NCBI GenBank assembly: GCA_000165345.1
Contig: CM000430.1
Span: 192,001-256,000 of the forward strand
Direction: 5' to 3'
DNA length: 64,000 nt
The first letter of the stretch is position 1, and every line of letters begins with the position of its first letter. Position numbers and translations under genes: made by a program. The notes under the pieces are model-generated. The model was not told the DNA's origin, searched no databases, and worked only from the letters and a program-made list of their open reading frames with translations. Below, piece by piece: positions 9,210 through 38,726 of the stretch.

Positions 9210-11054
9210 TTAGTCCATGTCATCGTTTTGAGAACGGGGCTTTGGACCTCCTGCAGGCTTTGCCATAATGATTTCATCTATTTTAAGAATAGTAACAGCT
9301 GAGTCTGTTGCTAATTTTAAAGCAGAACAAAGAGTGCCCAAATGATCGACAATCAATCCTACTCCCTGCTCATTATTTGAGATACAGTCAATAATTGGAG
9401 AAGTTCCAGAACCACAGAAAACATTTATTCCTTTATGTGGTTGAGAACCTTGTTGATGTATTGCATGTAGTGATGCCAGAAGATCGGTGGAGTTTAGTCC
9501 AGAATTCTCAGCCAATAGTCTTGGGAAAACGTCTAAAGCTTCAGCAAACATATTTACTGCGTACTCCTCCATTCCAGGAACAGGTACATCTACAGAATTT
9601 TGTTGGTATTTGTTTTCAGACTTATCATATGCTCTCAAGCATTTAGAAAGCTCAACAAATGTAGCCCCAGCGCCAGCAACAAATCGATTATCTTTTGTAG
9701 ATGATTTAACAACAGAGACAGAATTCGCAATAGCCCTTTCCATTTCATCCAAAATTCCCTGAGTAGCACCTCTAAGAATAACTGAGCTTACTTTGGTATT
9801 AAGAGCATTAATCACAGTGACCTTCTTCGATCCAATTTCCTCAACCCTGATAGAACTAGCCTTTCCTATTTCTTCTGGAAGAGGAACTCCCAATCTAACC
9901 ATTGCAACAGCTCCAATACTTCGGCAAATGCGCCTCAGTTCCCATTTAGATGTAATTCTTAGAGTTAATATATCGTACTTGTTGCAAAAGTGTTGTGCAA
10001 TATCAGAAATTGGACCGCCTGCGATAATAGCATCGATCTTACCGGTTTGTTTAATATCTTTAATCAAGTTTTCAACCAGAGATTCCTCACCTCTAGTAAA
10101 ATCCAAAAGCTCTTGAGCATTATTTAAAACAACTGTACCTTTCGCCTCTGTTCCAGTCATCTCTAGTCCACATCCTAAAACCATAACATTTGAGACCTTT
10201 TCCAATTTTCTTATTGTACCTCCAGGCTCTCTATTAACCATCATACCATTTATTGTAAATGATTGCATTGGGGATCCTCCCAAAAGCTTAACAATTCTTA
10301 CATTGTCTATATTGAATTCTTTTAATTTATCTTCATCTGGCATTATGCTTGTAATGGCTTCACATGTCAATCTCGTAATTAAATCAGAATATCCTATATT
10401 CTTTGTTGAAACCAAAGGCCTTACAATTCCAGATAAGTCACTAACATTCTTAAAATTAGCAACTCTATGTGCTACCATTCCATTTAGTAAAGATAATGAT
10501 CTTTCTAAGGCTATTTCATATCCTGCTACAATATCTGAAGGATGTAAACCATTATCATTAAGTAGCTTTGCAGCATTTCTTAATAATTCTCCTGCAAATA
10601 TCAAAACTGTATTGCTCGCATCACCGTACTCTTCAGCCTGCCTCTTACATGCCATTACTACCATATTTGCTGCTGGATGCTGGATATCAAGTTCTTCTAT
10701 AATTGTTGACAAGTCACTAGTGATGAACTGTTTTCCAAGATGATTCACAATTAACTTATTCATGCTATTTGGACCATATGATGTTTGAGTCATCTCACTT
10801 AAATTTACGCAAGCCTCAATATTCCTCAATACGGCCTCATCCAGGCCGGAAAATGCCCTGCTTCCATCTTTTAATAAATTTGTAATTCCTGGTCTTAATT
10901 GGAACTAAAAACAATCAGAGGAAATTAATTAATGAAAATAATAATTAAAAAAATTGACCAATAAGTAGCTCAAGCTAAAAAGAATGAAGGCAAATGGGCC
11001 ATATCGCCATGTTCACCTTATTATTGACCAATTTTTATACTCTAAACTTACCAT
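9210..11054 (-). CDS. CCT8: T-complex protein 1 subunit theta (CCT8). Two exons: exon 1 is the ATG only (11054..11052), intron 11051..10905, exon 2 10904..9210
   Basis: The C-terminus IIMAKPAGGPKPRSQNDDMD matches human CCT8 IIMAKPAGGPKPPSGKKDWDDDQND; the equatorial-domain motifs are present. The open frame upstream of the ORF-track start reads FQLRPGITNLLKDGSRAFSGLDEAVLRNIEAC (human: PGFAQMLKEGAKHFSGLEEAVYRNIQAC) and ends at an acceptor tttttag; 147 nt further upstream lies ATG|GTAAGT. Confidence 0.85.
10905..11051 (-). other. Spliceosomal intron (147 nt) placed immediately after the start codon of CCT8
   Basis: Minus-strand ATG at 11054-11052 is followed directly by GTAAGT; acceptor TGTTTTTAG ends at 10905; the splice restores the conserved CCT8 N-terminus. 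Confidence 0.7.
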
Positions 11055-12638: not shown

Positions 12639-12971
12639 AATATATAGATTAGAGGTTGAACCATCTCCAATATCCCACAAATATTAACTAGCAATTCGCT
12701 GTTCATAATGTTTATTTTTATTCATATATAAATATCCCCCCTTTCGTATTTTCAATTTTGCATGTATTCTCGCATTTTATTTGCATGTGAATATATTTTA
12801 ATAAATAAAGATCGTTGGCGCCATACGTGTCTTATAAATTAATAGGTCAAATTATTAGCAAAATGCCATTCGATAATAAAAATAGATTGGTCTATTGATA
12901 AGTACTCACAGCTGTTAATAACTACCTAAATAAATATATTTGAAGAATTAAAATTATCCCTATAAGAGAAA

Positions 12972-15900
12972 ATGATTAATAATTCACAGGAACTGGTTCA
13001 AAAAGTGGATGACATTGTACTTCCAGAATGTGAAGATAGAAAGTACAGAGCTTTAGAGCTTAAGAACGGTCTAACAGCCTTTTTAGTATCAGATAAGGAA
13101 ACTAAAACAAGTGGATGCTGCCTTACAGTCTACATTGGAGCTATGTACTCTCCTAAAAATTTAAATGGATTGGCACACTTTTTAGAGCATATGTTATTCT
13201 GTGGAACAAAAAAATATCCGAACGTGGATGAATATCAAAAATTTATTGCAAGCCATGGAGGAAAGAGGCATGGATCTACTACAAGATCAACTACAACATA
13301 TTACTTTGAAATAAAAAATAATGCTTTTAATGAAGCATTGGATAGATTTTCTTCATTCTTTACAGAACCATTGTTTTGCAAGGATATGACAGAAAAAGAG
13401 GTTTCTGCCATTGAAAATGAGTTCCATCTTAAATATCACAGTGATGAAAGAGTTAGATTCCATTTACTTGGTCAATTGTCAAACAAATCACATCCTTTGA
13501 ATTGTTTTACTACCGGGAATAAAGAAACTTTGGAATTCAAACCCAAAAAATTGGGAATCAATCTCCATTCTGAACTTTTAAAGTTCTACTCTTCCTATTA
13601 CAGCAGTAATATTATGTCAATTATTCTTTATGGAAAAGAAGATCTAGACACATTGGAAAAGTATACTATTGAATATTTTTCAAAAATTCCAAATCACCAA
13701 GTTAATTGTTTTGATTATACAAAGATTTTCATGGAAATTCCTCCTTATACAAGAGAAACTTCAATTGGAAAAATTATTAAGTTAATACCTTATGAAACTG
13801 ACAAAAGATTAAAAATCTACTTCCCACTTCCTCCTTTAGACAAATATAACGATAGTTGTGCTCCTGCTTATATTGCAAACATTATTGGACATAAAGGTGA
13901 AGGAGGAATATCATCAATATTAAGAGCTAAAAAACTTGCTACTGGTGCTTCTTTTGCTATTACTAATGAAGATCCATGTGCACTAGCTCAGTTTGGGGTT
14001 GTTCTAACTGATGAGGGGTATAATAATATTGGACAAGTATTGGAAATCATTTTCAACTTTTTAGTATTATTTAAGGCAACACCTGTTATTCCAGAACTAG
14101 TTGATGAGTTTATTGGGATTACTAGAGCAGGTTTTACTTATCAACCCAAATTCTCAATTCGTGACTTATTCTCATTACCAGCAAAGTATCTCAAATACAA
14201 ATGTAAATTTGAAGAAATCCTCTCTTCCGGTTTTGTTGTGAAAAAATTTTCACAAGATGATGTATTCTCTATTTTGGAATACTTAAGTAATGACAATTTT
14301 TTTATCTTACTATCTTCGCAAGCAATTGAGGAGGAGTATAAGAAAAATCAAGAAAACTTTATTGTTGAACATTATTATGGAACAAAATATAGTATTTCAG
14401 AACTAGATGAAGATTTGCTTTCAATAATTAATTCCTCCTCACCAGAAAAGGCTTTAAAACTTGGGTTAATTTTGCCAAAGCCGAATCAATTTGTATCAAC
14501 AGATTTCTCAATATTAAACCCACAAAAGGTTTGTGTTAATGATTACTTGAGAATTCCTGAGCTTCTAAATTTTGATGAATTGAAAGCTCAAGGTAATACC
14601 GATTCTTACAATATTCATTCACATCCTTTAAATATTTGGTTTAAACCAGATTCAACCTTTAATTCTCCTCATTCATTAATCAATATGAGATTAGTTGCTG
14701 AGAGAATTCTAGAATTTAAAGAAAACTCATCTTTTGAGAAATTGTCAAATTTTTCAAATGAATTAGTTTTCCAAGTATTTGGTGAAATCTTAAATGAAGT
14801 TATGTATAGAAGTATGCATGAGCTTTCTTCAGATATATTAGCAGCAAGTTTATCTTATACAATTAATTTCAATTCTAGAACAAATGTATTTGTTTTACAA
14901 GGATTTGGACTTTCTCACAAATTAAATTATTTGATTTCAATAATGTTCGAGAAATTATATCATGGAACAGAGGTTAGAAAATATTATGATGAAGCCATAT
15001 TAATTATAAGCAAAGATTGGAAGAATAAGATAATAAAACCAAATTTGACTTCACTTTCACTAGAATGTATCTCAGAATCTTTGTCACCTTTTTTCTTCAA
15101 TCGTCAAGAAAAATTAAATGTTTTGGAATCATTTACTTTTGAATTGTTTTGTTCTATAAGACAACACTTTTTATCAAACTGTAGACTTGAAGGGTTAATT
15201 ATGGGTAATTTTTCAGAACCAAATGCAAAGTGTATTTCAATACAACATTGGAAAAATTTGATAAATTTCCAGAATTCTGTTAAAAATGAAGTAAAATCTT
15301 GTGGAATAAAAGTAGAACAATTTTCAATTGTTAATTTAAAAAAGGATATTTATACTTTAAATTATATTCCAAATAGTTCGGACAAAAATGGATGTTGGAT
15401 GTTGAGTTTCTTCCTTGGAGAGTATAATTTGAGGAAACAAGTCCTATGTGATTTGATTTTACCGTTTGTCTCAAGTGAAGCTTTTGCTGATCTCAGAACT
15501 AATCAACAACTAGCTTATGTTGTTAGAGCTACACAGATATTTTCTTCTCCTGCAATTATTATTGGATACTATTTACAATCATCTGAGTATACTAATGCTC
15601 TAACTCTTGAGAGGCTTTTAGAGTTTCATATAAACAAAACAAAAGTGGAACTAAAAAGTAAATTGAATAAGGAAATGTTTATAAAATTGAAGGATTCCAC
15701 AATTCAAACCCTTTCATCAAATCCAAAAAGTATCTTTGATGAGTATAAGACTTATCTTCATGAGATTAATGAAAGATCATATTTATTTGATATAAGACAA
15801 AGGAAAATAGATATATTAAATAATGTACAATACAATGAATTTATTGAATTTTATGATAGTATATGGACTTCAAACTCCGTATTAACAGAAATAAGATCTC

Positions 15901-16052
15901 AAATAGATGATACTAAGAATTCTGGTGTGGGTTCTGAATATAAAGATCCATCTATTCCAGAAGGATATTTAAAATTGGAGTCAATTACTCAGATTTCAAG
16001 GAACAAAAATACACCCATGATTTCGCTGGAAGATAAACTAAAGAATTTGTAA
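12972..16052 (+). CDS. Insulinase-like peptidase, M16A family (IDE-like), paralog 1
   Basis: Inverted zinc motif HFLEH at the N-terminal domain plus a downstream ENEF Glu; ~1000 aa four-domain architecture typical of insulin-degrading-enzyme-like proteases. Confidence 0.9.
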   Translation: MINNSQELVQKVDDIVLPECEDRKYRALELKNGLTAFLVSDKETKTSGCCLTVYIGAMYSPKNLNGLAHFLEHMLFCGTKKYPNVDEYQKFIASHGGKRHGSTTRSTTTYYFEIKNNAFNEALDRFSSFFTEPLFCKDMTEKEVSAIENEFHLKYHSDERVRFHLLGQLSNKSHPLNCFTTGNKETLEFKPKKLGINLHSELLKFYSSYYSSNIMSIILYGKEDLDTLEKYTIEYFSKIPNHQVNCFDYTKIFMEIPPYTRETSIGKIIKLIPYETDKRLKIYFPLPPLDKYNDSCAPAYIANIIGHKGEGGISSILRAKKLATGASFAITNEDPCALAQFGVVLTDEGYNNIGQVLEIIFNFLVLFKATPVIPELVDEFIGITRAGFTYQPKFSIRDLFSLPAKYLKYKCKFEEILSSGFVVKKFSQDDVFSILEYLSNDNFFILLSSQAIEEEYKKNQENFIVEHYYGTKYSISELDEDLLSIINSSSPEKALKLGLILPKPNQFVSTDFSILNPQKVCVNDYLRIPELLNFDELKAQGNTDSYNIHSHPLNIWFKPDSTFNSPHSLINMRLVAERILEFKENSSFEKLSNFSNELVFQVFGEILNEVMYRSMHELSSDILAASLSYTINFNSRTNVFVLQGFGLSHKLNYLISIMFEKLYHGTEVRKYYDEAILIISKDWKNKIIKPNLTSLSLECISESLSPFFFNRQEKLNVLESFTFELFCSIRQHFLSNCRLEGLIMGNFSEPNAKCISIQHWKNLINFQNSVKNEVKSCGIKVEQFSIVNLKKDIYTLNYIPNSSDKNGCWMLSFFLGEYNLRKQVLCDLILPFVSSEAFADLRTNQQLAYVVRATQIFSSPAIIIGYYLQSSEYTNALTLERLLEFHINKTKVELKSKLNKEMFIKLKDSTIQTLSSNPKSIFDEYKTYLHEINERSYLFDIRQRKIDILNNVQYNEFIEFYDSIWTSNSVLTEIRSQIDDTKNSGVGSEYKDPSIPEGYLKLESITQISRNKNTPMISLEDKLKNL

Positions 16053-16477
16053 TACATACTTTATTTGCAGGTTATAATACTGTATAATTTCTTAAAATTA
16101 ACACACTCAATAATGAGATTGCAAAAAATTAGTTCAAGACTAAGTAATTTAATTACATTATTTTAAAAAAAAGTCACATAAAAAACACAAAATAGTCAGT
16201 TTCGATTCAAAATTTGTAAATTATTTTTTTTATTTTATTTTTGTATCTGAATATTTGTTATTTCATCCGATAAAGGAAATTATTGCAATTTTGAAATGGC
16301 GGGAACATTCAAAATGTTATGTGGGTTAATAGCACAAATATCTGGGAAAAATGTCAAAAGGGGGGGTAATTTTTGTATAGAAATTAGGCATAAAGATAAA
16401 AATAAAATAATCTGAAAACCAAGAAAAGAAAAAAGAGACACGAGGAAATTATTTTTTCAGAGATTTAAATAGAATAG

Positions 16478-19400
16478 ATGACAGAAATAAAGACGAATTT
16501 AAAAGAAATTCAGAATGAAATAACGAAGCCAATTTATGATGACAACAAATATAGAGCTCTGGTATTGAAAAATAATTTGAGGGTATTATTGGTTCAGGAT
16601 GAGAATACGGATATTTCAGGAGCAAGTATGTCAGTATTTGTTGGTTGTCAGCAAGATCCTGAAGAACTGAATGGCCTTGCCCATTTTTTGGAGCATATGT
16701 TATTTTTAGGCTCAGCCAGACATCCAAACCCTAGTGATTTTGATGACTATATGAAATTGAATGGAGGGAGTTCAAATGCATTCACAGATAATTTGTCAAC
16801 ATCTTACTTTTTCGAAATAAAAAATGAGTCATTTGAGCATGCATTAGACTTATTTTCTGCTTTTTTTATATGTCCTTTATTTGATACAAAGTATGTAGAT
16901 AGGGAAGTTAATGCAGTAAACAGTGAGCATAACAAAAATTTGTTATCAGATTTATGGATAAGATATCATGTAATTTCTTCAATAGCTAGGAATGGGCATC
17001 CATTGAGAAAGTTTGGTACTGGAAGTATAGAAACATTAAAATATGAGCCAGAAAAGAAAGGAATTGATTTGATTGCAGAACTGAAGAATTTTCATAATAA
17101 ATATTATAGTTCAAATAATATGTTTCTTACTTTGGTTTCAAATTGTGATCTTGATGAGCTTGAGAGTTATGCAATAAAGTATTTTTCAGAAATAGTTGAT
17201 AAGAATATTGCTCGTGTTGATTATTTTGGTGAATTCCAAAAAGAAAGACCATATTTAAGTATTATGGAATCTCCAGAAGATGGTGCTCTTGAGTCAATGG
17301 TATATGTAATACCTAATAAAGATGAAAAAAAAGTATCTTTTAATTTTCAGATTCCTGATTTACGTAAATTTAGAAAAGGACTTCCTGAAATGTATTTTAC
17401 AAATATTTTAGGACATGAAGGGCCAGGAAGTTTGACTTCAGCTTTGAGAAGAAATGGTTGGTGTCTTGCTCTAAGCAGCGGATTAAATGAAATGTATTCC
17501 GCTAATTTGTTTGAAATAATAATAACTTTAACAGAGAAAGGTGCAAGAGAAGTTTTGAGTGTTATTGAATACACATTAAATTTTGTGAATTTGGTTATAA
17601 AGAATGAAATAGATATGGAAGTAGTTTCAGATCTTGAAAAACTTTCTCAGCTTGTCTTTGATTATAGAAATAGACCAAGTCTAGATGAAACTATAAGTAA
17701 TAATGTATTTGCTCTTGCAAATTTACCTCCTCTAAAGGAACTTCTTACTTTTGGGAATAGAGTTGAAAAAATGGATGTAGATGCAGTAAAATATCTTAAA
17801 CAATATTTTGATCCCAAGAATATGTTTATTTTACTTTCAATTCCGGAAAATAAAGCTCTTATTGAAGATGAAAGACTTAAAGATAAATTAATTTATGACA
17901 GACATTATAATATAAACTATTTGAAGTTAGAGTTTGGACCAGAAATTAAGGAAATTATCTCTAATATAAGTCTTTCTAATGCTAGCAGATTTGGACTCAA
18001 AATGCCAACAAAAAATAATTATATTCCAGAGAATTTTGACTTAATGAACACGTATGGCGGCAACATGCAGGCATTCCCCACAATTTTGGAGATTCCTGGA
18101 AATTCATTTAGTGACAGAGTGGTTGCATATTATAAGCCTGATACAAATTTTCAAACTCCACACGGTTTTTCTCAATTCTTTTTCTTCTCATCAAGTAAGG
18201 TTACATGTGAATTACTTGTTCTTGATACTTTGACATCTTTAACATTAAGTAAATTTGTTGCAGAAGAGGCTTATAATGCAACCATTGCCAATTTAGACTA
18301 TAAGATTTCGGGTGGGTACAATTTAAGAAATTCAATGAATTGTTTATCTATCACAATTTCTGGTTTTAATGATAAAATGCACACATTATTAAAGTTTTTG
18401 ATCAAATCTCTAGTTGAACTCAAAAATGATGGTAAAAAGCAACTATATAAATCATTCTTTGAAGATGCTCTGGAGGAAAGTAGACTATCAGTCAGAAACT
18501 CACTTTTTAATCCAGATATACTTGCCCATTTGACTTCGTATAATTTCAGGGAGTTTTATTCTGTTTATACTCCTTCAAAAGAGGAGATTTTATCTATATT
18601 AAGTACAACTACATACGAAAGGTTGTGTGATCATATATCAACATTTTTCTCACAGTGTTTGATAAAATCGATCACAGTTGGTAACTTAAATAAGGAACAA
18701 GCACGAGAACTTGTTGAAACTGTGACTATCAAGGAATTGTTATCGTCTGAACAACTAAATTCTAAAATGGAAAAGACTATCATTAGAAACTGCATAGATT
18801 TGGAAAAAGCAATAGAATCAGATCCTGAAATAAAATCCAATAGGATCATTCTATCTAAGTCTGTGATAAACCCAATGGATAAGAATGGTTCAGTTATATA
18901 TTCAATTGATATGGGAGAGTACAATTTAAGAAACTACGTTCTTTTGGAGCTGTTGTCAAAATATTTGGATTCAAATTGCTACTTAGAACTTCGTACAAAT
19001 CAACAATTAGGGTATATTGTGCATGCATGTAGCTATAATTTAAAGCCAGCTATTGGTATTTATGTTTGTGTTCAGTCTTCAGACTTCAGTAATTCTCATG
19101 TTATAAACCGCATTCATAATTTACTTGATGATCTTTTGGTCGTAAAATTATCGGAAAAGCTTGATGAGGATCAGTTTAACATTTTAGTGGATTCTGAAAT
19201 TAAGATTTATTCAAACAAACCAAAAAATATTAAAGAGGAAGTTGCTCAATACTTGACAGCAATCACTAATGGAGAGAGCAATTTTGATTGGAAAGACAAG
19301 TCCATTAAAATTCTTGAAAATTTAACTTATCAAGAATTCTGCTCTTTTGTTACAGATCTAATCAGTAGGCCAAGGACTATTGTACAATCTGTATCAGCCT

Positions 19401-19519
19401 TGGACGCCAGCAAAAAATGTGAAGATGTGGCTAATGATTTTGTTCCAAATGGATTTATAGTTATCAAAGATTTCAAACATTTTAGAAATACTGACGCACT
19501 ACTTAACATAACTATATAA
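16478..19519 (+). CDS. Insulinase-like peptidase, M16A family, paralog 2 (tandem duplicate of the upstream gene)
   Basis: HFLEHMLFLGSARHP zinc motif, REVNAVNSEHNKN distal Glu (IDE: REVNAVDSEHEKN); N-terminal ~130 aa clearly alignable to paralog 1 (KYRALxLKNxL...NGLAHFLEHMLF). Confidence 0.9.
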   Translation: MTEIKTNLKEIQNEITKPIYDDNKYRALVLKNNLRVLLVQDENTDISGASMSVFVGCQQDPEELNGLAHFLEHMLFLGSARHPNPSDFDDYMKLNGGSSNAFTDNLSTSYFFEIKNESFEHALDLFSAFFICPLFDTKYVDREVNAVNSEHNKNLLSDLWIRYHVISSIARNGHPLRKFGTGSIETLKYEPEKKGIDLIAELKNFHNKYYSSNNMFLTLVSNCDLDELESYAIKYFSEIVDKNIARVDYFGEFQKERPYLSIMESPEDGALESMVYVIPNKDEKKVSFNFQIPDLRKFRKGLPEMYFTNILGHEGPGSLTSALRRNGWCLALSSGLNEMYSANLFEIIITLTEKGAREVLSVIEYTLNFVNLVIKNEIDMEVVSDLEKLSQLVFDYRNRPSLDETISNNVFALANLPPLKELLTFGNRVEKMDVDAVKYLKQYFDPKNMFILLSIPENKALIEDERLKDKLIYDRHYNINYLKLEFGPEIKEIISNISLSNASRFGLKMPTKNNYIPENFDLMNTYGGNMQAFPTILEIPGNSFSDRVVAYYKPDTNFQTPHGFSQFFFFSSSKVTCELLVLDTLTSLTLSKFVAEEAYNATIANLDYKISGGYNLRNSMNCLSITISGFNDKMHTLLKFLIKSLVELKNDGKKQLYKSFFEDALEESRLSVRNSLFNPDILAHLTSYNFREFYSVYTPSKEEILSILSTTTYERLCDHISTFFSQCLIKSITVGNLNKEQARELVETVTIKELLSSEQLNSKMEKTIIRNCIDLEKAIESDPEIKSNRIILSKSVINPMDKNGSVIYSIDMGEYNLRNYVLLELLSKYLDSNCYLELRTNQQLGYIVHACSYNLKPAIGIYVCVQSSDFSNSHVINRIHNLLDDLLVVKLSEKLDEDQFNILVDSEIKIYSNKPKNIKEEVAQYLTAITNGESNFDWKDKSIKILENLTYQEFCSFVTDLISRPRTIVQSVSALDASKKCEDVANDFVPNGFIVIKDFKHFRNTDALLNITI

Positions 19520-20060: not shown

Positions 20061-23000
20061 ATGAATAAGTATCTACTTATTTACCATTTTTTCCTACAGG
20101 TGGTAATTCTATTATCAATTAATGGAATTTCATTAGGAAAAGAATCTGATTTGGTAGATAACGAGGAATGTGAAAATCCGGAGTATTTGTTTCCCTGGGG
20201 GAACGATTATCTTAATTCATGTTTGAGTTTTCAATGCCATAGGGTCCGAGAACATAAAAGTTGGTATCGCTTTTGGGAAAAAAAACCAAAATATGTTCAT
20301 AAAAATATTAATGGAAGTGAACGGGTGATACAATGTTCAGACTGTGAAGGTTTTTTAAAGAAAGGAGCTCTATTTGGTGGAATGTCAATTTGTACTCCAA
20401 TTGAGTTTGGTGGTAGTTTTGATATACCAAAAGGTTGGGTATCTATAGCTACTGCAAGCTTGCAATTAAATAAGGAAATTAAGAATAAAAGCTCAATTAA
20501 GTTAATTCCAGATAACTGGAGAATTGATGGACAGACTAAAAAGACAACCTTGGACTTGTCCGCTTGTTCCACTTCTGATGATTCTGAAGTAGCTTTATCT
20601 ATATTAGTAACTTTATCAAATATAGCCGAACCTTCCAGAAAGTCCTCAAAATATAGACGTATTTTGGGTCTTCATGATGATTCAATTAATGTGAGGATTA
20701 AAACTCTTGGAGTTGATATGGGAGACTCAGCGGATGGTTTTGACGATGATGATTTGGATGATGACTTTGATGACGAATTTGATAGTGAAGATGTTCAACA
20801 AAGCATGCAACCTGATAATGGGTATAATGAGTACTTTTTGTATGATATGAATAAATTAGCTTCAACACAGCATAGGGTACCTAGAGACAACCCATCCAAG
20901 GGCAAAAAAAATAAGCGAAAAGTAAGAAAGCAAAAACCATTTACTGGTGCAGAAAAACTCCCAAGAAAATGGAAACTTAGCAAAGGCCATGCTTCGATAT
21001 ATTCATCGTCCGATGTTGTGAGGCTTGATCTTGCTTCAGATATTCACCCCAATGAACTTGTCCAAGTTATTCTTACATGTAATAACAAATATATGAATTG
21101 CAATATCCAAGACTTTGTTTCGTGCTTCAATATTCTCTGTAGATCTGTAACCAAGGAAGAGCTTATTCGTAGAGCAGCTTTAATGAAAGCTAAACGGTTC
21201 ATTTCAAATTCTATTATTTCAGGTCAAGTAGTGCCTAAAATGGCTTATAACGGCATGCCATTTCAACCCGGTTTCCCGCCTGCTATTCCAGGGCCTTTCA
21301 ATGGTCAATTCCAGTATCCACATGCAAATAATATAGTAAATGGGAATTTCATACAAAGAAATTCAACTTTGCCTATTCAAGGAGTTTCGAGTGTAGGAGC
21401 AAATTATATTCAAAATAGGGGAAAAAATGGGATTGTTATGGTTAACAATGGAGTAGGAAAGCCTGCTGAAGTAAGTAACCAAGCTAACGTTTTTGTTGGA
21501 AATAATGATGGCGTACAAAATGTAAATATAAATACCAATACTAAGACTGCTGGAATTTCTAATATTTCCCTTCAGCAACCTCCTGCAAATGTTAAAACTT
21601 CTCAGAGTACCGCAGCATCAAAGGGTATTCAAATAATTTTTGTACCAGCACAGAGTCAAACGAATGCCCACTGCCAAAGCCAAACTAACATGGTTAATGT
21701 AAATAAAGCTGTGACTAAATCATCGTTAAAACAGAAAAAGCAAAAAACCTTCATAAGTCAAAACATCATTCCAAAGGAAAACACTAATATTCCAAATCAA
21801 ATTAATAATCCTCAAATACCTACACCAAAACAATCTAAGTCTCAAATAAACCAGATCGGAGTTTATGGCCCTGCTAATCACACCGTTGTTACCTCGTATA
21901 ACTCAAATGTATTAAACACTGATATTTATCAAACTTCCTCTGAGAAAAACTTGGAGAGTCAACCAACAACAGTTTGTATACTAGCTATGGAACCTAAAAG
22001 TGAATCTAAAGTAAATGTTGCGAGTTCAAACACAATTCAGCCCGTAGAACAAACTCAATTCAGCAATGTAAAACAAGATGTTACAGTAGTTTTTAATCCT
22101 ATAAATACAGTTACAAAAACCTCAAAAACTAGCAAACGCAATACTGTGAAACAAACAACAACTAAAACTCAAGCACCAACTTTAAATATTTTATTAGTTC
22201 CTAGTAAGACTGTTAAAAGAAAGAATAATTTCAAGAAAGTTTCTAAAGTCTCTAAAAACGAGGTTAAACATGCAAATAAAACAGTAGACATTATTTTGTT
22301 AAATAGTAATTTAAATCATAAACCTAAAAAGGCTGTTGATAAAAGTAATTCAGATTATATGGCTTTGAATACAAATAATGTCCTAAAACCTCCAAAAATA
22401 ATAACAGGCAAGATAACCTACAAATTGCCTAAAAAAATCAAGAAAAGTAGCAAATCAACAAAGCCAGAGTTTAATATTATAGATACCATAGTTTTAGAAA
22501 AGGTTGATAATAAGGAACCCAGAAACAAAATTGAAAAGTTAGTCCCTGTGGATAGCTCTTCTTTAAGTGATGAGAATATTTTATTATCAGATTCTGAAAT
22601 TAGTAGCCAATACATTTCTAGTAGCCAGAAGAAACATTCTAGACAGTCGCATAGCTCCCGTTCGAAGAATAAAGCTCATAGAAAGAAGTCCATAAAAGTT
22701 ATATCTCGAGAAGACGGAGCAACTGAAAACGTTCTGCTAGATTCCAACAAACATATTTCTAATTCCGATAATAAGGCTTCTTCGGTCAAAGTAGAAAAAT
22801 ATATTCTACATCCAGTTGGCACTTCAGAAAGTTCTGAGGACTCTGAAAGTTTTAGCGAATATGAATTTGGCTCGGAAGAAATTGGATATCTGAGTGATGA
22901 AGATTTCAGTGCCCTAATTCTGAAAAAAGTTAAAGATGATTCTGCAAAGTCAGATAAATCAGTGAAAACGGAGTCCAATTCTAAAGTCTCTATTCAGTCA

Positions 23001-23252
23001 CAGAAAACAAAAAACGAAGATGATGATCAAGTTAATGAGGAGATAAAGATCAAAAATATAGAAAAGAGTGAATCTAAAGTTGAAATAGAAAATAGCCCTT
23101 TAAGTGATTCTTCTGATTATGAAATTTTTACCAAACAAAAACATTATAATTACGAAACAAGAAGCACAATGAAGTCTATCTTGGGATATTCAATATTGAT
23201 CAGTGTTTTTCTGTTCATAGTGTTCATTATTATGAAACTACTCCTGCTTTAA
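20061..23252 (+). CDS. Large secreted mucin-like glycoprotein (1063 aa): signal peptide, Cys-containing N-terminal domain, poly-acidic stretch, long Thr/Ser/Asn/Lys-rich low-complexity region, C-terminal hydrophobic GPI-anchor-type tail
   Basis: N-terminus MNKYLLIYHFFLQVVILLSINGISLG; DDDDLDDDFDDEFDSEDV; T/S/K/N/Q-rich repeats (TKTSKTSKRNTVKQTTTKTQAPT...); the extreme C-terminus SILGYSILISVFLFIVFIIMKLLLL has no cytoplasmic tail. Confidence 0.7.
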   Translation: MNKYLLIYHFFLQVVILLSINGISLGKESDLVDNEECENPEYLFPWGNDYLNSCLSFQCHRVREHKSWYRFWEKKPKYVHKNINGSERVIQCSDCEGFLKKGALFGGMSICTPIEFGGSFDIPKGWVSIATASLQLNKEIKNKSSIKLIPDNWRIDGQTKKTTLDLSACSTSDDSEVALSILVTLSNIAEPSRKSSKYRRILGLHDDSINVRIKTLGVDMGDSADGFDDDDLDDDFDDEFDSEDVQQSMQPDNGYNEYFLYDMNKLASTQHRVPRDNPSKGKKNKRKVRKQKPFTGAEKLPRKWKLSKGHASIYSSSDVVRLDLASDIHPNELVQVILTCNNKYMNCNIQDFVSCFNILCRSVTKEELIRRAALMKAKRFISNSIISGQVVPKMAYNGMPFQPGFPPAIPGPFNGQFQYPHANNIVNGNFIQRNSTLPIQGVSSVGANYIQNRGKNGIVMVNNGVGKPAEVSNQANVFVGNNDGVQNVNINTNTKTAGISNISLQQPPANVKTSQSTAASKGIQIIFVPAQSQTNAHCQSQTNMVNVNKAVTKSSLKQKKQKTFISQNIIPKENTNIPNQINNPQIPTPKQSKSQINQIGVYGPANHTVVTSYNSNVLNTDIYQTSSEKNLESQPTTVCILAMEPKSESKVNVASSNTIQPVEQTQFSNVKQDVTVVFNPINTVTKTSKTSKRNTVKQTTTKTQAPTLNILLVPSKTVKRKNNFKKVSKVSKNEVKHANKTVDIILLNSNLNHKPKKAVDKSNSDYMALNTNNVLKPPKIITGKITYKLPKKIKKSSKSTKPEFNIIDTIVLEKVDNKEPRNKIEKLVPVDSSSLSDENILLSDSEISSQYISSSQKKHSRQSHSSRSKNKAHRKKSIKVISREDGATENVLLDSNKHISNSDNKASSVKVEKYILHPVGTSESSEDSESFSEYEFGSEEIGYLSDEDFSALILKKVKDDSAKSDKSVKTESNSKVSIQSQKTKNEDDDQVNEEIKIKNIEKSESKVEIENSPLSDSSDYEIFTKQKHYNYETRSTMKSILGYSILISVFLFIVFIIMKLLLL

Positions 23253-31216: not shown

Positions 31217-33163
31217 TCAATCTTTCTGTAATCTTCCCTTCATTCCATCAAATGTGTAAGTTTCCAATGCTGGTTCTGGTAACTTAATTGGATGAATTTG
31301 AAGATCAGTTTGCGTATACATAAACCAAGCCACAAAATCTTCGAGTATTCCATCAATGATAGACCTCCTTATCGACAATAATAAACCTTGATATTGCCAA
31401 TAGTTGTGCATGAATAACAATGAAAACCCTAAAATCTCACCGGAGTTGATTAAGTGGTGGATATATGCTCTCGAATGAGAGACTGGACTATTCTTTGTTA
31501 GTTTATCCGAGTCACAAGAATGTCTTCTATCATTCAGATTTAAATATTTGGCGCCACCGAAAAAACATACTCCTGCATCTACTTGCGCTCCCCCATTTTT
31601 CTCCAAAACTATTCCGCACTCATTACTTGAAAAATCAAACTCTAACAAAAATCTTTCAACATTCTTCTTCTCTTCGTCACTATAATTGATGATCTCTCTT
31701 TGCTTCAAAAACTCGTCAAGTTCAAATGATAGTGCGACTCCGCTTAGACTACATCTGTAAACATAAGGGCACTCAATAATGTCCATCCCAAGGTACACCG
31801 CTTGCAATATCTCTATAGGGCTACCCGTACTAAGTGAAATTAGCCTTAATTTATCATCAGGAACGTGATCCACAACAGCTTTAATGCACTCAGCCCTTAC
31901 TGACGACTTCTCTGAGTACCCCAGACCTCCTATGGCCACACCCAAAATCACTTCATCCAGTTCGCTGATCGCTTCGGGTCCACTTGAGCTATCAACCCTA
32001 AGATCAGCATTGCCTTTATCCCTTGAAAATCCAACATTTTTCAAGCCCTTGCCCATACCTCTACACAAATCCCACACACCCAGGGCAGCCGCTGCTCTGT
32101 AGTTCACAAACTGAGCTCCCTGTATATTTGCCAGCACCTTTGTCCTCGGTCTCTCAGACCTAATAGTGCGGAAAGCTCCTTCACCATCTTTTATAGAACC
32201 CTCCTCATCAACCTGGATTTTGCCTTTTTCTTCTATTTTCCTTTGAGTATATGCACTCTTTCTCTTTAGTTGCTCAATCAGAGCCAATAGCATCTCATCA
32301 GCTCTCTGAATCGACCTAAAAGATACATTTTTACCACATTGACCTGTTTGAGCCTCCTCTGCAGGAGAAATCAAAAATGCTGGTTGAAAGTATCTTACTG
32401 ACGCAACCAAATCGTCAATGCTGACCATTGCCCTTCCACTTTCAGTCTGAACCAGAATTCCATCCGAGCCATTCCAGCATGACACTCCAGGAATCATTGG
32501 CTGGCGGAACATCAGGTAATTGACATAGTCCTTGTTGGCTAGTTGAGGTGGGGGTTGTTCCAGCATGTCAAACTTACTTGCATTGTTCCCATATTTAATA
32601 CATGAACGATTTCCAGTTCGTTCATCATTTTTCTCTTTTATGGACTCCAACTCTCTCCTTTTGACTCTCTCCAAATCTAGTCCATGTCCTATTAGTAGAT
32701 AGTCCACTTCAGGCATCAAAGATGCTAACTCATAATTCTCTGATTGATCCGATTCAATCTTGGGCAAAATACAATGGGGCAGGCCTCCAAAAGTTGGAAC
32801 AGTGAATGACGGGGTCGCAATACTGGCTATCCCGAAATTCTCTAGGTTTACAAGACTCGATTTTGATCCAGTTTCTGTTATCTGAATACTCTCAATCAGA
32901 TCTGGGTTTTTAGAGGCCGTCTTAATTTCTGAGTGTCTTATCATATCACCATATTTTGAAAGAAAACATTCAGGAATCTCAAGGACTCCTAGTCTGTACC
33001 TTGCACCCCTATTATTATGCATTAAAATTCTAAAATTAACCATTGTATTAGATTTAACTAATTTAACAACTTTGAGGTGTTTTTCCTTATAACTTTTTAA
33101 ATCCCCAAAAGACATTTCGCGGGTTTTTAGAACACTGGATAGACACGGATCAATAATTTGCAA
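31217..33163 (-). CDS. QTRT2: Queuine tRNA-ribosyltransferase family protein, accessory-subunit type (QTRT2/QTRTD1-like), extended
   Basis: DKLRLISLSTGSPIEILQAVYLGMDIIECPYVYRCSLSGVALSFELDEF and HSRAYIHHLINSGEILGFSLLFMHNYWQYQ align with QTRT2 [33 protein letters not shown]...ALTFSFD and [29 protein letters not shown]. The ORF-track start is a TTG; the first ATG is about 16 codons in. My base numbering in this region has a 1-nt uncertainty. Confidence 0.75.
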   Translation of the reverse strand: MQIIDPCLSSVLKTREMSFGDLKSYKEKHLKVVKLVKSNTMVNFRILMHNNRGARYRLGVLEIPECFLSKYGDMIRHSEIKTASKNPDLIESIQITETGSKSSLVNLENFGIASIATPSFTVPTFGGLPHCILPKIESDQSENYELASLMPEVDYLLIGHGLDLERVKRRELESIKEKNDERTGNRSCIKYGNNASKFDMLEQPPPQLANKDYVNYLMFRQPMIPGVSCWNGSDGILVQTESGRAMVSIDDLVASVRYFQPAFLISPAEEAQTGQCGKNVSFRSIQRADEMLLALIEQLKRKSAYTQRKIEEKGKIQVDEEGSIKDGEGAFRTIRSERPRTKVLANIQGAQFVNYRAAAALGVWDLCRGMGKGLKNVGFSRDKGNADLRVDSSSGPEAISELDEVILGVAIGGLGYSEKSSVRAECIKAVVDHVPDDKLRLISLSTGSPIEILQAVYLGMDIIECPYVYRCSLSGVALSFELDEFLKQREIINYSDEEKKNVERFLLEFDFSSNECGIVLEKNGGAQVDAGVCFFGGAKYLNLNDRRHSCDSDKLTKNSPVSHSRAYIHHLINSGEILGFSLLFMHNYWQYQGLLLSIRRSIIDGILEDFVAWFMYTQTDLQIHPIKLPEPALETYTFDGMKGRLQKD

Positions 33164-33295
33164 ATCATAATAAGCACTCTGACAAAAAATTCACTTTGCC
33201 AAGTAATAATAGTATTCATTATGGCTATATTGGAAGTATTATCAGTATCGCAGCAGCGATAGGATCAGTAGAATTTGCCATGTTTGTGGTCCCGG

Positions 33296-33430
33296 TGTAG
33301 TAATGATGTTAGTGATGGAAGTGGTAGTAATAGTAGTAATATTAATAGTAGTAGTAGTAGTGGTAGTAGTGGTAGTAGTGGTGGTAGTAGTAATATTAGT
33401 AGTAGTAATATTAGTAGTAACAATATTGTC
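33296..33430. repeat. Imperfect trinucleotide microsatellite (AGT/GGT/AAT)n, about 135 nt, intergenic
   Basis: agtagtaatagtagtaatattaatagtagtagtagtagtggtagtagtggtagtagtggtggtagtag... ; both overlapping track ORFs (poly-Ser on plus, poly-Leu on minus) are translation artefacts of the repeat. Confidence 0.8.
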
Positions 33431-33622
33431 AAAACAATAAATTTCTCCTCCTTAGTCTCCGGTATGCATGCAAGACCCAAGTCTAGATATGGTTATGGGA
33501 GGATCCAAATATTCTGTTCCAGAGGCACTGAACTCCAGACCTCATATAACAGGGTCCACAATAACTTTGTCAAACATAATTACACTTCTTTGTTCAAATA
33601 TTAACAAGAGGGCTTCCATCTT

Positions 33623-35542
33623 CTAAACTCTGTGAGAGTTTGAATTGTCATAGATAAGTATATTTTTGAGGAGCATTTGCAAATTTGCAGATTTTTCGGG
33701 AAGATGATTCTGGCTCTCGGCAATCAAATGGCTATTCTCTAACGAGTCTATGGATGGTTGTGGGGCTGATTGAATTCTAAAGAAATCGGAAAATGATAGG
33801 GATGAATTGTTGGTATGGTCAATGTGAGAGCCCTTATTGGAGGTAGAATTTGCATTAGGAACGGCGGTAGTAGTATTAGTAGTAGTAGTAGTAATAGTAT
33901 TAGTGGCGGCGATAGGGTTAATTGGAAAATCTGTGATTCCATTATATGGAGAGTTGATACTGCCATCATTGGGTGGAAGTAAAATAGAGCTTTCATACTT
34001 CTGATTCATCCTAACATGACCAGGCTCAGGTCTATAGCGAGCCTGCTTTATTCCAGACACGTAACTGCAGTGGAGTTGAGTAGTGTTTGGGAAGGAGTTA
34101 ATTGTATTTGAAGCTGGTGAGGGAATAATCGGAGGGTTAACACAGCTGCCATTATTACGAGGAATATTACAGCCGTTCATGAAGGGCATATGATTGATCT
34201 GTAGAGAACTACTCTGTTGAGCAGCACTCTTAGACTTGGCTTCAAACTGCTCCTGATGAAAGTTTCGGTTTCTAGTAGATCCCTCGACAATAGGTCTCAG
34301 GGTAAGCGGAAGAAGTGCATCCTCACCTGCCTTAAGCTGGATTTTAAGAGGTTTTCCAAAGAACTTAATCCCCGCGATAGATCGGATTGCTGCCCATGTA
34401 GAGGGTTTGTTGTCATAGCTAATAAAGCCAAAGCAACGGTTTAGTTTCCCATTATTGTTAGCCGTCGGTAGTCTAATTCCAACAATATGGCCAAATCTCT
34501 GGCACAGCTGCATTAGAGTAACCTCAGTCCAGTCATTGGGTATGCCGTATATGAAAAGGTTGGCGCCTCCTGGACCATCTCTTAGCAGCGTAATAGAGGT
34601 CGGAAGGAAGTGTTTATCATCCTTTGCTTGGCTAACAGATAATGTCGGTTGCATATTGCCGGTGAAAGAATCCCAATATTCACATAAACCATTTTCTCGA
34701 TAGTATTGCATCCATCTTGCCGGAGGTTGATGCATCTTGTGATCTCTTCTGAAGCAGTTCCATGTGCCAAAGAATCCCTTGTTCTTTTCAATTCGGTTAT
34801 AAGATGGTAACCAAATCTCAGTGTCCTGAGGTTGGTACATTATAAGCCTTCGATTGGTTTCCTGGAACTCTGTGATAATTTGTTCTGCCTCTTGTGGATC
34901 ATAGGCAGAGTCAAAACTTGAAGAGAGTACGGATGGTGGAGGAATTGGGGATATGCAAGCCACAAGGCGGTGGAATGGCGCATTTTTGAAGTGCCTTCTT
35001 AGATGAAGGTGTTGGATGACTTTCTGGGCACAACTCCATGTCTTGAATGTTGCATATGCAGTTCTCCATTCCTTGTAACTTGGTTGGTAGTTAAGAGCAA
35101 TCATACGGTGGCAGTTGTCCTCTTCGCTTCGTGTATCAAAAGAAGATAAGATAACTGATTTTAAGTACTCATATGGAACATTCGGAGGAATGTTCCCAAT
35201 AAATACTATCGGATAGAGTAGACCACATGGTACAACTGCTATCGGGTTATCATCAAATATAAAATTGTTTACATATCGGGATTTTAAGTCCTTTGAACTG
35301 TTGTTTATAGGCTCTTCGTTCATATTACCCATAAATGATCCAAATTCATTGAGAGCTAATCCTCCTCCCTTGATAGGGTCCTCCCATCCAATTTCATCAG
35401 CCTTTAAACATGATTCCTGGACTGGCCATCCAATATCTGAGGCAGTTGATTCACTCAAAGTTTGGTATTGTGAAACTAACTCCTCCTCGAAAGATGGCGA
35501 GAAATAGCTCGACAGTCCTTTATTGCCATGGCTCTTATACAT
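33623..35542 (-). CDS. RRM-containing RNA-binding protein with a Thr/Asn-rich C-terminal region
   Basis: Canonical RRM: RNP2 LFIYGI and RNP1 RCFGFISY (NLFIYGIPNDWTEVTLMQLCQRFGHIVGIRL...KLNRCFGFISYDN); an N-terminal IVFIGNIP segment may be a second degenerate RRM; in-CDS (GTAGTA)n encodes TTTTTNTTT. Confidence 0.75.
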   Translation of the reverse strand: MYKSHGNKGLSSYFSPSFEEELVSQYQTLSESTASDIGWPVQESCLKADEIGWEDPIKGGGLALNEFGSFMGNMNEEPINNSSKDLKSRYVNNFIFDDNPIAVVPCGLLYPIVFIGNIPPNVPYEYLKSVILSSFDTRSEEDNCHRMIALNYQPSYKEWRTAYATFKTWSCAQKVIQHLHLRRHFKNAPFHRLVACISPIPPPSVLSSSFDSAYDPQEAEQIITEFQETNRRLIMYQPQDTEIWLPSYNRIEKNKGFFGTWNCFRRDHKMHQPPARWMQYYRENGLCEYWDSFTGNMQPTLSVSQAKDDKHFLPTSITLLRDGPGGANLFIYGIPNDWTEVTLMQLCQRFGHIVGIRLPTANNNGKLNRCFGFISYDNKPSTWAAIRSIAGIKFFGKPLKIQLKAGEDALLPLTLRPIVEGSTRNRNFHQEQFEAKSKSAAQQSSSLQINHMPFMNGCNIPRNNGSCVNPPIIPSPASNTINSFPNTTQLHCSYVSGIKQARYRPEPGHVRMNQKYESSILLPPNDGSINSPYNGITDFPINPIAATNTITTTTTNTTTAVPNANSTSNKGSHIDHTNNSSLSFSDFFRIQSAPQPSIDSLENSHLIAESQNHLPEKSANLQMLLKNILIYDNSNSHRV

Positions 35543-36562: not shown

Positions 36563-38326
<1,764 letters not shown>

Positions 38327-38697
38327 TATAACCCAAAAGCAACAATCGATGGACAAGGCAAGTCGAAGCCATGGTCCAAAGTGGTAAGCAGACAACCACA
38401 AAGAAATTGGGGGGTCTAAACCAGCTTAATAGAGACAAGGTTCTTGGTTCATGAAAACTATTTATCGGAGGGAACAGAGGAACTGATCATTTGTGCTAAC
38501 AGCTCAGCTATCTTTGTTTTTTCGGCTATTGAGAATGTTCTTCTCAGCCGGTGCTGAAAACATCACGGCTGCAATAGCAATATAATCAGCGTTGCAGTCT
38601 TCAGGTAAAATGAAGACAAGTGATTTTTACGCAGGCCTTACCTTGACGCATTCGAGGTGGAGCGAAGACATATCCGCACGTACCCAGCTACTAAAAG

Positions 38698-38726
38698 TTT
38701 GGCGCCTTGCGGTAATGGCGGTAGCG
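38698..38726. promoter_or_regulatory. Paired E2F-like motifs TTTGGCGCC ... GGCGG inside the GC-rich helicase-Rpn9 spacer
   Basis: aaagtttggcgccttgcggtaatggcggtagcg read directly from the sequence. Confidence 0.35.

Follow-up and report, generated by a model that had tools for sequence, protein, structure and literature searches.

The window analysed here, a stretch of 64,000 nucleotides, contains two neighbouring genes whose predicted products, each of approximately 1000 amino acids, both resemble the insulin-degrading enzyme (IDE). Such a pair raises the question of whether the two genes encode working peptidases of common descent and, if so, how long ago they separated and where in the parasite their products would act. 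The explanation that very probably accounts for the locus as a whole is that the genes are ancient tandem duplicates of an IDE-type peptidase, that their products are cytosolic and partitioned between life-cycle stages, and that one of the two, INS4, was lost in the gastric clade of Cryptosporidium. Both genes already carry annotations and names and have been studied in part; the missing signal peptides as well as the stage expression are known from print. The finding is correct but ordinary and has little importance beyond bookkeeping; one small addition to what is known is the relic of INS4 that persists as a pseudogene in gastric species.

Identity and organization of the gene pair

The pair is the already catalogued INS3 (cgd2_920) and INS4 (cgd2_930) of Cryptosporidium parvum chromosome 2, under the names given in PMC8092296. 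Exact-sequence look-up showed that the product of the first open reading frame (ORF) is identical to C. parvum QOY43141/WRK30880 and that of the second to EAK88861/QOY43140. In addition, published CpINS-4 (cgd2_930) reagents matched the second ORF, namely the primers used for cloning and for qPCR as well as the amplicon of 3042 bp. Both genes lie on the forward strand and are separated by a spacer of 425 nt. Two IDE-like genes of about 1000 aa at this spacing and on one strand had been described in the sequence-only reading, and their coordinates proved exact (Table 1); that reading had not identified them as the named genes INS3 and INS4.

Table 1. Positions of the coding sequences, catalytic motifs, and upstream elements of INS3 and INS4 within the window
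Feature	Position	Strand	Description and basis
Conserved INS3 upstream elements	12759..12823	+	Three-species alignment
Two TGCATG, AP2_1-like	12759-12764, 12782-12787	+	INS3 upstream; motif class from PMC3734150
Palindromic E2F-like TGGCGCCA	12816-12823	+	INS3 upstream
INS3 (cgd2_920) CDS	12972..16052	+	1026 aa, single exon, IDE-type M16A peptidase
INS3 zinc-binding/catalytic HFLEH, aa 69-73	13176..13190	+	Invariant in 9 INS3 sequences
INS3 E143...E150 (EVSAIENE)	13398..13421	+	Corresponds to IDE E182 and zinc ligand E189; IDE alignment, invariant columns
INS3 R842...Y849 (RTNQQLAY)	15495..15518	+	Corresponds to IDE-C chamber R824/Y831; IDE alignment, invariant
Conserved INS3-INS4 spacer block	16280..16369	+	Likely INS4 promoter core; C. 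parvum/C. meleagridis/C. ubiquitum alignment
E2F-like GGCGGGAAC	16298-16306	+	180 nt upstream of INS4 ATG, inside spacer block
G-run	16360-16366	+	Inside conserved spacer block
INS4 (cgd2_930) CDS	16478..19519	+	1013 aa, single exon, IDE-type M16A peptidase
INS4 HFLEH, aa 69-73	16682..16696	+	ORF and ortholog alignment
INS4 E143...E150 (EVNAVNSE)	16904..16927	+	Corresponds to IDE E182/E189; IDE alignment, invariant
INS4 R839...Y846 (RTNQQLGY)	18992..19015	+	Corresponds to IDE R824/Y831; IDE alignment, invariant

Family assignment and fold

The Pfam domains M16, M16_C, M16_M, and PqqF-like_C_4 were all found in both proteins. The best match among solved structures was human IDE in each case, with 283 bits and an E-value of 1e-83 over a full-length alignment for INS3, and with 370 bits and an E-value of 1e-109 over aa 8-989 for INS4. 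The AlphaFold model of INS3 (pLDDT 90, pTM 0.89) superposed on closed IDE (2jg4) with TM-scores of 0.87/0.93; the small insertions at approximately aa 520-600 and 770-780 were modelled with low confidence. These results bear out the earlier assignment of both genes to the IDE-like M16A peptidases. The NCBIfam scan returned only sub-threshold pitrilysin/PqqF matches, as is to be expected, since a eukaryotic protein was scanned with prokaryotic models.

Targeting signals and predicted localization

Within the first 45 residues, the maximum 9-residue Kyte-Doolittle score was 1.22 for INS3 and 0.53 for INS4, while ORF 20061, a downstream reading frame with an evident signal peptide, scored 2.93 on the same measure. 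By this hydrophobicity heuristic, which is not equivalent to SignalP, no hydrophobic N-terminal core was found in INS3 or INS4, and no transmembrane-like segment was found anywhere along either protein. In-frame stop codons lie three codons (INS3) and one codon (INS4) 5' of the ATG, and the conserved domain begins at about residue 10 in both proteins, leaving no room for a prodomain. The SignalP-based analysis of PMC8092296 also lists both proteins without a signal peptide, in agreement with the heuristic and with what had been read from the sequence alone. Since INS3 and INS4 have neither a signal peptide nor an N-terminal extension, they are most likely cytosolic rather than residents of a secretory organelle and, by analogy with IDE and yeast Ste23, would act as peptide-degrading or peptide-processing enzymes.

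Mammalian IDE partly leaves cells although it has no signal peptide, and a non-classical route of this kind to the dense granules or the surface would make INS4, and possibly INS3, a secreted or organelle-resident invasion protease. This alternative draws on the data of He et al. (2021), which fit uneasily with a purely cytosolic INS4: anti-CpINS-4 serum stained the mid-region of sporozoites and merozoites, a pattern read as dense-granule-like, the same serum lowered infection (parasite load) by 36%, and the INS4 protein was seen as fragments. It is further favoured by the peak of the INS4 transcript at 2 h and by a former listing of INS4, by homology, as a putative rhoptry protein, noted in the INS4 paper. 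However, the absence of an N-terminal hydrophobic segment, of space for a prodomain, and of a transmembrane-like segment in both proteins makes a part in secretion or invasion, as put forward from the antibody data, less likely; those data consist of polyclonal sera against an Escherichia coli product and a modest neutralisation. The authors of PMC8092296 also take the absent signal peptide as an argument for a role unlike that of the secretory INS1. A spatial-proteomics (hyperLOPIT) assignment of INS3 or INS4 was not found in the main texts of the literature. We consider a secreted INS4 unlikely and retain the cytosolic location.

Divergence of the paralogs and origin of the pair

INS3 and INS4 aligned end to end (BLASTP E-value 6e-126) with an identity of 29-30%. 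The earlier statement that the N-terminal ~130 residues align clearly was correct, with 44% identity over the first 130 aa; the accompanying statement that the rest has diverged was not, as the whole length is alignable: domain 1 shows an identity of 42%, and domains 2 to 4 still show 26, 22, and 29%, respectively.

The best non-orthologous matches of INS3 were the INS4 orthologs, with 407-428 bits as opposed to at most 337 bits for all others. A word-indexed search with INS4 listed no INS3 protein despite a score of about 400 bits, so that the absence of gastric INS4 and of INS1 from its results carries no weight as evidence. Because of this miss, an exhaustive representative search of 1.84 billion proteins was used, in which INS3 was the top non-INS4 representative for the INS4 query (394 vs 364 bits). 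In a neighbour-joining (NJ) tree, INS3 and INS4 were monophyletic in 200 of 200 bootstraps; this tree is distance-based and omits INS1 and other apicomplexan homologs, its distances are saturated (~1.6 substitutions per site between INS3 and INS4), and the AT-rich composition common to both Cryptosporidium branches may cause artefactual attraction. Judged by their sequences, INS3 and INS4 are ancient tandem duplicates: they are mutual closest relatives, lie on one strand, and have kept their adjacency in related genomes.

The distance between the paralogs is close to that between INS4 and animal IDEs (1.54-1.75), which would also suit two IDE lineages of separate ancient origin that just happen to be neighbours. 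Nevertheless, both searches returned INS3 and INS4 as reciprocal best relatives, the NJ tree united them in every bootstrap, and they have in common the strand, the single exon, a near-identical length, and an adjacency maintained across species. Thus, a separate origin is highly improbable, and the tandem duplication is preferred.

Conservation, decay in gastric species, and selection

The order CCT, kinase, INS3, INS4, and next gene was kept in the intestinal species C. ryanae, C. meleagridis, and C. ubiquitum. INS3 was retained in every Cryptosporidium species examined, and on the NJ tree its gastric orthologs were the earliest to branch off within the INS3 clade. In the gastric species, the INS4 slot carried only decayed collinear relics, which were detected in three species with an INS4-ortholog HMM run on stop-to-stop fragments; none of the 30 shuffled control sequences gave a comparable match. 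In the C. serpentis gap, INS4 was not found by tblastn at an E-value of 1e-5, and a looser tblastn search yielded one marginal match; the collinear relics came to light only with the HMM.

Since the gastric species keep INS3 together with decayed INS4 relics, the duplication, as read from these genomes, predates the radiation of the genus and hence its crown group, and the decay of INS4 in place dates and polarises one known INS loss. The suggestion of an old duplication made before this analysis is in line with these data, in which INS3 and INS4 are reciprocal closest relatives forming one clade whose split is older than the gastric/intestinal divergence.

When the orthologs of C. meleagridis and C. 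ubiquitum were used for the comparison, dN/dS was 0.10/0.10 for INS3 and 0.12/0.09 for INS4, as compared with 0.18-0.37 for the neighbouring genes. Such values (dN/dS ~0.1) show that purifying selection on both genes is strong. For the C. parvum and C. ryanae orthologs, dS was undefined. The dN/dS between INS3 and INS4, which had been proposed as a check, is not meaningful, because synonymous sites are saturated at such divergence.

Catalytic residues and predicted mode of action

The residues H, E, H, E, E, R, and Y were invariant in 9 INS3 sequences (C. parvum and 8 orthologs), 8 INS4 sequences, and 19 other IDEs. In both paralogs, the third zinc ligand is a Glu located about 77 residues past HxxEH, in an ExxxxxxE pair. 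Each protein thus combines HxxEH, the distal Glu pair, four domains, and the chamber Arg/Tyr, the features of M16A peptidases. The placement of the INS4 HFLEH motif agrees with PMC8074150, and the alignment with IDE confirmed that HFLEH and the distal Glu (in ENEF of the first ORF and SEH of the second) are kept in both, as had been noticed from the sequence. With the catalytic residues invariant across orthologs, both enzymes look active. By sequence, INS3 equals INS4 in conservation and in the completeness of its catalytic residues, and of the two copies it is INS3 that persists across the genus; a functional characterisation of INS3 was not found in the literature.

Of the 22 INS proteins of C. 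parvum, only 10 have kept HxxEH (PMC8092296), and INS4 did decay in the gastric species, so one paralog might be a catalytically dead or decaying pseudoenzyme, as are several INS proteins lacking the motif. Against this stand the catalytic and chamber residues, all of them invariant in both paralogs in C. parvum and the intestinal species examined, and the dN/dS of ~0.1, which extends over all four domains; at the sequence level, the pseudoenzyme reading is refuted for C. parvum, and its probability is minimal. An assembly duplication or collapsed alleles, which near-identical nucleotide copies would have indicated, can be discarded, since the copies are strongly diverged not only in protein identity but also in nucleotides (blastn left only two short matches, 72 nt at 74% and 48 nt at 77%) and occur as separate genes in at least four species whose genomes were assembled independently.

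Based on homology, each of the two paralogs would form a four-domain clamshell of ~115 kDa. The zinc site is predicted in the N-terminal half, with His69, His73, and Glu150 as ligands and Glu72 as the general base, while the C-terminal half would shut over it, supply the conserved Arg/Tyr, and create an enclosed chamber. Because of this enclosure, probably only short unfolded peptides could be cut.

Comparison with other M16A proteases

Human IDE (MEROPS M16A) and yeast Ste23 share with INS3 and INS4 a length of ~1000 aa, four M16 domains, the lack of a signal peptide, and the active-site residues, namely HxxEH with the Glu ligand that follows it and the Arg/Tyr of the chamber. They differ in that their identity to INS3 and INS4 is only 23-31% and in that they occur as one copy rather than as two stage-partitioned ones; INS3 and INS4 are also slightly longer than IDE.

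C. parvum INS1 (cgd1_1680) is likewise a four-domain M16A protease whose HxxEH motif is active; it was grouped with INS3, INS4, and IDE and, like INS3, is high in macrogamonts (PMC8092296). However, INS1 has a signal peptide, is located in secretory vesicles, and carries HLIEH. No HLIEH protein was present among the top 150 representatives for INS4, so that INS3 is apparently a closer relative of INS4 than INS1, on the assumption that the INS1 cluster representative carries HLIEH. An N-terminal signal peptide is found in secreted paralogs such as INS1, INS6, INS15, and INS20-19, unlike in INS3 and INS4.

INS15 and INS16 (cgd3_4260/cgd3_4270) are, according to PMC11760560 and PMC9315855, also adjacent four-domain paralogs with HxxEH. 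Whereas that pair is recent, with ~90% nucleotide similarity (PMC5146892), subtelomeric, equipped with signal peptides, and variable between species, INS3 and INS4 are ancient (29% aa identity), chromosome-internal, and without signal peptides. The Toxoplasma toxolysins TLN1 and TLN4, used for comparison with INS4 processing in PMC8074150, are apicomplexan M16A proteases as well; they are equipped with a signal peptide or a prodomain and are located in the rhoptries or the micronemes, whereas INS3 and INS4 have no targeting sequence.

Stage expression and upstream elements

According to published data (PMC8092296, PMC8074150), INS3 expression reaches high levels in macrogamonts, whereas that of INS4 comes earlier and is seen in sporozoites and merozoites; this published partition supports the subfunctionalisation that had been suggested for the pair. 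Following these expression data, macrogamonts would be the main stage at which INS3 is used, and INS4 would serve early on, in sporozoites and merozoites as well as asexual stages. The retention of both copies fits such partitioned expression, and in the gastric clade INS4 has turned into a pseudogene relic while INS3 was kept throughout the species examined. A speculative and rather doubtful extension would be that one housekeeping peptidase was split by the life cycle into a female (macrogamont) INS3, indispensable as judged by its retention in every species examined, and an asexual/invasive INS4 that was dispensable in the gastric lineage and decayed there in place, with the promoter elements (TGCATG pairs and TGGCGCCA vs GGCGGGAA and the G-run) as the switch and the INS4 loss tied to the gastric niche.

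The spacer between the genes includes a predicted E2F-like site. The sequence AATGGCGGGAAC at 16295-16306 was compared with motif 4, TTTGGCGGGAAV, a C. parvum E2F-like upstream motif (Oberstaller 2013, PMC3734150), and agreed with it in 9 of 9 positions of the GGCGGGAAV core and in 1 of 3 positions of the T-run. The site was kept in C. meleagridis and differed by one base in C. ubiquitum. Thus, the E2F-like GGCGGGAAC reported earlier is indeed present in the spacer; however, it is not distinctive, because the E2F-like class is the most abundant class of upstream motifs in C. parvum (PMC3734150) and INS3 has an E2F-like site too. Within the window, GGCGGGAA occurred 6 times (0.23 expected) and TGGCGCCA also 6 times (0.13 expected).

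Identification of the INS3/INS4 gene pair

The window has a G+C content of about 30% and dense, mostly single-exon ORFs. ORF calling agreed exactly with the coordinates, strand, and spacing that a sequence-only reading had given for two insulinase-like genes, which lie 425 nt apart on the same strand. By exact-sequence look-up, ORF1 corresponded to QOY43141/WRK30880 and ORF2 to EAK88861/QOY43140 of Cryptosporidium parvum; EAK88923 is a 1028-aa variant of the ORF1 protein, and the 90%-identity clusters of both proteins include members from C. hominis, C. tyzzeri, and C. meleagridis. The published forward cloning primer for cgd2_930 (CpINS-4), ATGACAGAAATAA, is the start of ORF2, the published amplicon (3042 bp) has the length of ORF2, and the qPCR primer TCCAGAAGATGGTGCTCTTG has a single site, at 17272-17291, within this ORF. 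Together with the names given to cgd2_920 (INS3) and cgd2_930 (INS4) by Xu et al. 2021 (PMC8092296), the protein matches and published reagents identified the pair as the known INS3 (ORF1) and INS4 (ORF2) of C. parvum chromosome 2. The pair is therefore not new, being already named and partly studied; a functional study of INS3 was not found in the literature. The tandem arrangement was confirmed and its interpretation supported: judging from the sequences, INS3/INS4 represents an ancient, conserved tandem duplicate of an insulin-degrading enzyme (IDE)-type peptidase, with both copies predicted to be catalytically complete.

Coordinates and properties of the genes, promoter motifs, and INS4 relics (L005, L006, and L001, loci of C. 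muris, C. andersoni, and C. serpentis; KD, N-terminal Kyte-Doolittle score; residues from the alignment to IDE)
Feature	Position	Strand	Remarks
INS3 (ORF1)	12972-16052	+	1026 aa; H69, E72, H73, E143, E150, R842, Y849; KD 1.22
INS4 (ORF2)	16478-19519	+	1013 aa; H69, E72, H73, E143, E150, R839, Y846; KD 0.53
Downstream ORF	20061-23252	+	1063 aa; obvious signal peptide; KD 2.93
AP2_1-like TGCATG, two conserved	12759 and 12782		INS3 upstream region
TGGCGCCA, invariant E2F-like palindrome	12816-12823		INS3 upstream region
TGGCGCCA, all sites in window	12816, 23672, 25183, 31549, 38098, 61647		
GGCGGGAAC, E2F-like site	16298-16306		180 nt upstream of INS4 ATG
GGCGGGAA, all sites in window	11253, 16298, 19892, 21273, 23281, 49987		
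Conserved spacer block around GGCGGGAAC	16280-16369		roughly 90 nt; G-run 16360-16366
INS4-syntenic gap, C. muris	L005 13052-21235		
INS4-syntenic gap, C. andersoni	L006 13049-21076		
INS4-syntenic gap, C. serpentis	L001 13052-19305		
INS4 relic, profile positions 9-79	about 13.7-14.0 kb	+	INS4 HMM
INS4 relic, profile positions 197-236	about 14.2-14.4 kb	+	INS4 HMM
INS4 relic, profile positions 727-761	about 16.0 kb	+	INS4 HMM
INS4 relic, C. muris	L005 13673-14011	+	HFLEH position reads KAIEN
INS4 relic, C. andersoni	L006 14228-14443	+	
INS4 relics, C. serpentis	L001 13944-14231 and 14660-14995	+	

Active site, fold, and selection

Four Pfam domains (Peptidase_M16, M16_C, M16_M, and PqqF-like_C_4) exceeded the curated thresholds in both proteins. 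The best solved-structure match of each was human IDE, aligned over nearly the full chain (INS4, 370 bits, E 2e-109; INS3, 283 bits, E 3e-83), with E. coli pitrilysin ranked second. In an alignment of 35 sequences (9 INS3, 8 INS4, and 18 IDE-like proteins of other eukaryotes), the equivalents of IDE H108, E111, H112, E182, E189, R824, and Y831 were invariant, in agreement with the earlier view that the zinc sites of both copies are intact. The AlphaFold2 model of INS3 (57-sequence alignment; mean pLDDT 90, pTM 0.89) was superimposed on the substrate-free closed IDE 2jg4 with TM 0.87/0.93. INS3 and INS4 carry all sequence-testable defining features of M16A, the peptidase subfamily of IDE.

The dN/dS values, calculated by the Nei-Gojobori method between C. 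parvum and its C. meleagridis and C. ubiquitum orthologs, were 0.10 and 0.10 for INS3 and 0.12 and 0.09 for INS4, respectively, and ranged from 0.05 to 0.16 in every quarter of both genes, compared with 0.18-0.21 for the adjacent kinase and 0.37 for the downstream secreted protein. By these values, INS3 and INS4 are both strongly constrained, functional genes.

Divergence and age of the duplication

INS3 and INS4 were aligned end to end by BLASTP with 29% identity (E 6e-126). The sequence-only reading, according to which the N-terminal ~130 aa align and the rest has diverged, held in that identity was highest in the first 130 aa (44%; 42% across domain 1); however, the remainder is alignable throughout and has diverged only in degree (26, 22, and 29% in domains 2, 3, and 4). 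M16A proteins usually show such a gradient, the catalytic domain being the most conserved. At the DNA level, just two short blastn matches were left, which excludes an assembly duplication or a pair of alleles.

In a word-indexed search with INS3, its orthologs were followed by those of INS4 (407-428 bits), and other eukaryotic IDEs scored at most 337 bits. When INS4 was the query, the same type of search left out all INS3 proteins, although they score about 400 bits, so absence from its output does not mean absence from the database. In an exhaustive phmmer search with INS4 against 1.84 billion representatives, the best match outside the INS4 cluster was the INS3 representative (394 bits; next, 364 bits), and none of the best 150 representatives had the INS1-type HLIEH motif. 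The INS3, INS4, and INS3+INS4 clades were each recovered in 200/200 bootstraps of a neighbour-joining tree (Kimura-corrected distances, 943 columns) built without INS1 and other apicomplexan homologs; its distances were near saturation (1.6 between INS3 and INS4 vs 1.5-2.0 to other IDEs), and a biased amino-acid composition is common to both Cryptosporidium branches.

C. ryanae, C. meleagridis, and C. ubiquitum share with C. parvum the arrangement CCT subunit (-), protein kinase (+), INS3 (+), INS4 (+), and large signal-peptide protein (+). In C. serpentis, C. muris, and C. andersoni, which are gastric species, the same neighbourhood contains an INS3 ortholog with 46% identity; between it and the next syntenic gene lie 6.3-8.2 kb of DNA devoid of genes (G+C about 23%). 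An HMM built from nine INS4 orthologs gave five matches (E 2e-4 to 4e-3) among 555 stop-to-stop fragments of the three gaps, all on the + strand, the best minus-strand match being at 0.18; no match at E 0.005 or better came from 30 neighbour-preserving shuffles of the gap sequences. The relics were collinear with the INS4 profile, and an INS3 HMM gave them lower scores than did the INS4 HMM. Only C-terminal pieces (profile positions 702-760 and 923-990) were left in C. serpentis, which agrees with its 2-kb shorter gap. The INS3 orthologs and collinear INS4 relics of the gastric species indicate that the duplication, read earlier as old, predates the gastric/intestinal split of Cryptosporidium, with INS4 then decaying in place in the gastric lineage. 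Loss of many INS genes in C. andersoni has already been reported (Liu et al. 2016, PMC5146892), and the relic adds a small detail to these losses. The additions are modest: a duplication dated before the radiation of the genus, a relic of the INS4 pseudogene left in place in gastric species, and INS3 as the universally retained copy.

Predicted location of INS3 and INS4

The best 9-residue Kyte-Doolittle score in the first 45 aa revealed no hydrophobic N-terminal core in INS3 or INS4, and no TM-like 19-mer was found in either protein. In-frame stops lie 3 (INS3) and 1 (INS4) codons upstream of the start codons; homology to IDE begins around residue 8-12, too close to the N terminus for a prodomain to fit. 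The absence of a signal peptide, also proposed previously, is likewise described for both proteins by Xu et al. 2021 (PMC8092296), in contrast to the secretory INS1; the published paralogs INS15, INS20-19, and INS6 also have signal peptides. These features make a cytosolic location, like that of IDE and yeast Ste23, the most likely one. A less favored alternative for INS4 is the dense-granule location and invasion role suggested by He et al. 2021, who observed that anti-CpINS-4 serum stained the mid-region of sporozoites and merozoites and lowered infection by 36%, that the protein was present as several fragments, and that the transcript peaked at 2 h. However, that case is based on polyclonal sera, and the INS4 sequence carries no targeting signal.

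Expression and promoter motifs

According to sorted-stage RNA-seq cited in PMC8092296, INS3 is high in macrogamonts and INS4 expression comes considerably earlier, at 24 hpi; a transcript maximum at 2 h was given for INS4 in PMC8074150. The E2F-like site noted in the spacer is present, and its sequence agrees with the core of motif 4 (TTTGGCGGGAAV), an E2F-like upstream motif class (Oberstaller et al. 2013, PMC3734150). Conservation of the surrounding block extends to C. meleagridis and, in the form with GGCGGTAA, to C. ubiquitum, whereas the remaining spacer has diverged. The site is nevertheless unremarkable and does not tell the paralogs apart, since INS3 has its own TGGCGCCA and E2F-like motifs show overrepresentation upstream of gene clusters that together comprise 2,379 C. 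parvum genes, without a link to any particular expression profile (Oberstaller et al. 2013, PMC3734150). Both GGCGGGAA (6 found vs 0.23 expected) and TGGCGCCA (6 vs 0.13) were strongly enriched in the window, which fits the published dominance of E2F among C. parvum promoter motifs. What visibly sets the two upstream regions apart is a TGCATG pair in that of INS3 and a G-run in that of INS4. E2F-like sites near the two genes were mostly intergenic, some 150-260 nt upstream of a start codon; the GGCGGGAA at 21273, inside the downstream ORF, was an exception.

Neighboring genes

The protein encoded downstream of INS4 is of low complexity, carries a clear signal peptide at its N terminus, and has a hydrophobic anchor at the C terminus. 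With a dN/dS of 0.37 and no more than 52% aa identity to C. ubiquitum, it is fast-evolving; in C. serpentis, recognisable sequence was limited to roughly the N-terminal 390 aa and the last 32 aa. For the CCT/TCP-1 chaperonin subunit, the mechanical ORF (9210-10829, - strand) starts at a TTG and encodes 539 aa. Called orthologs are 560-565 aa long, and their genes span about 150 nt more than the coding length (e.g., 755-2599 in comparison locus L003), so the gene probably has a short 5' intron, uncommon in this genome. The region 32001-40000 contains several large ORFs and has a G+C content of 0.39-0.41 vs about 0.30 elsewhere.
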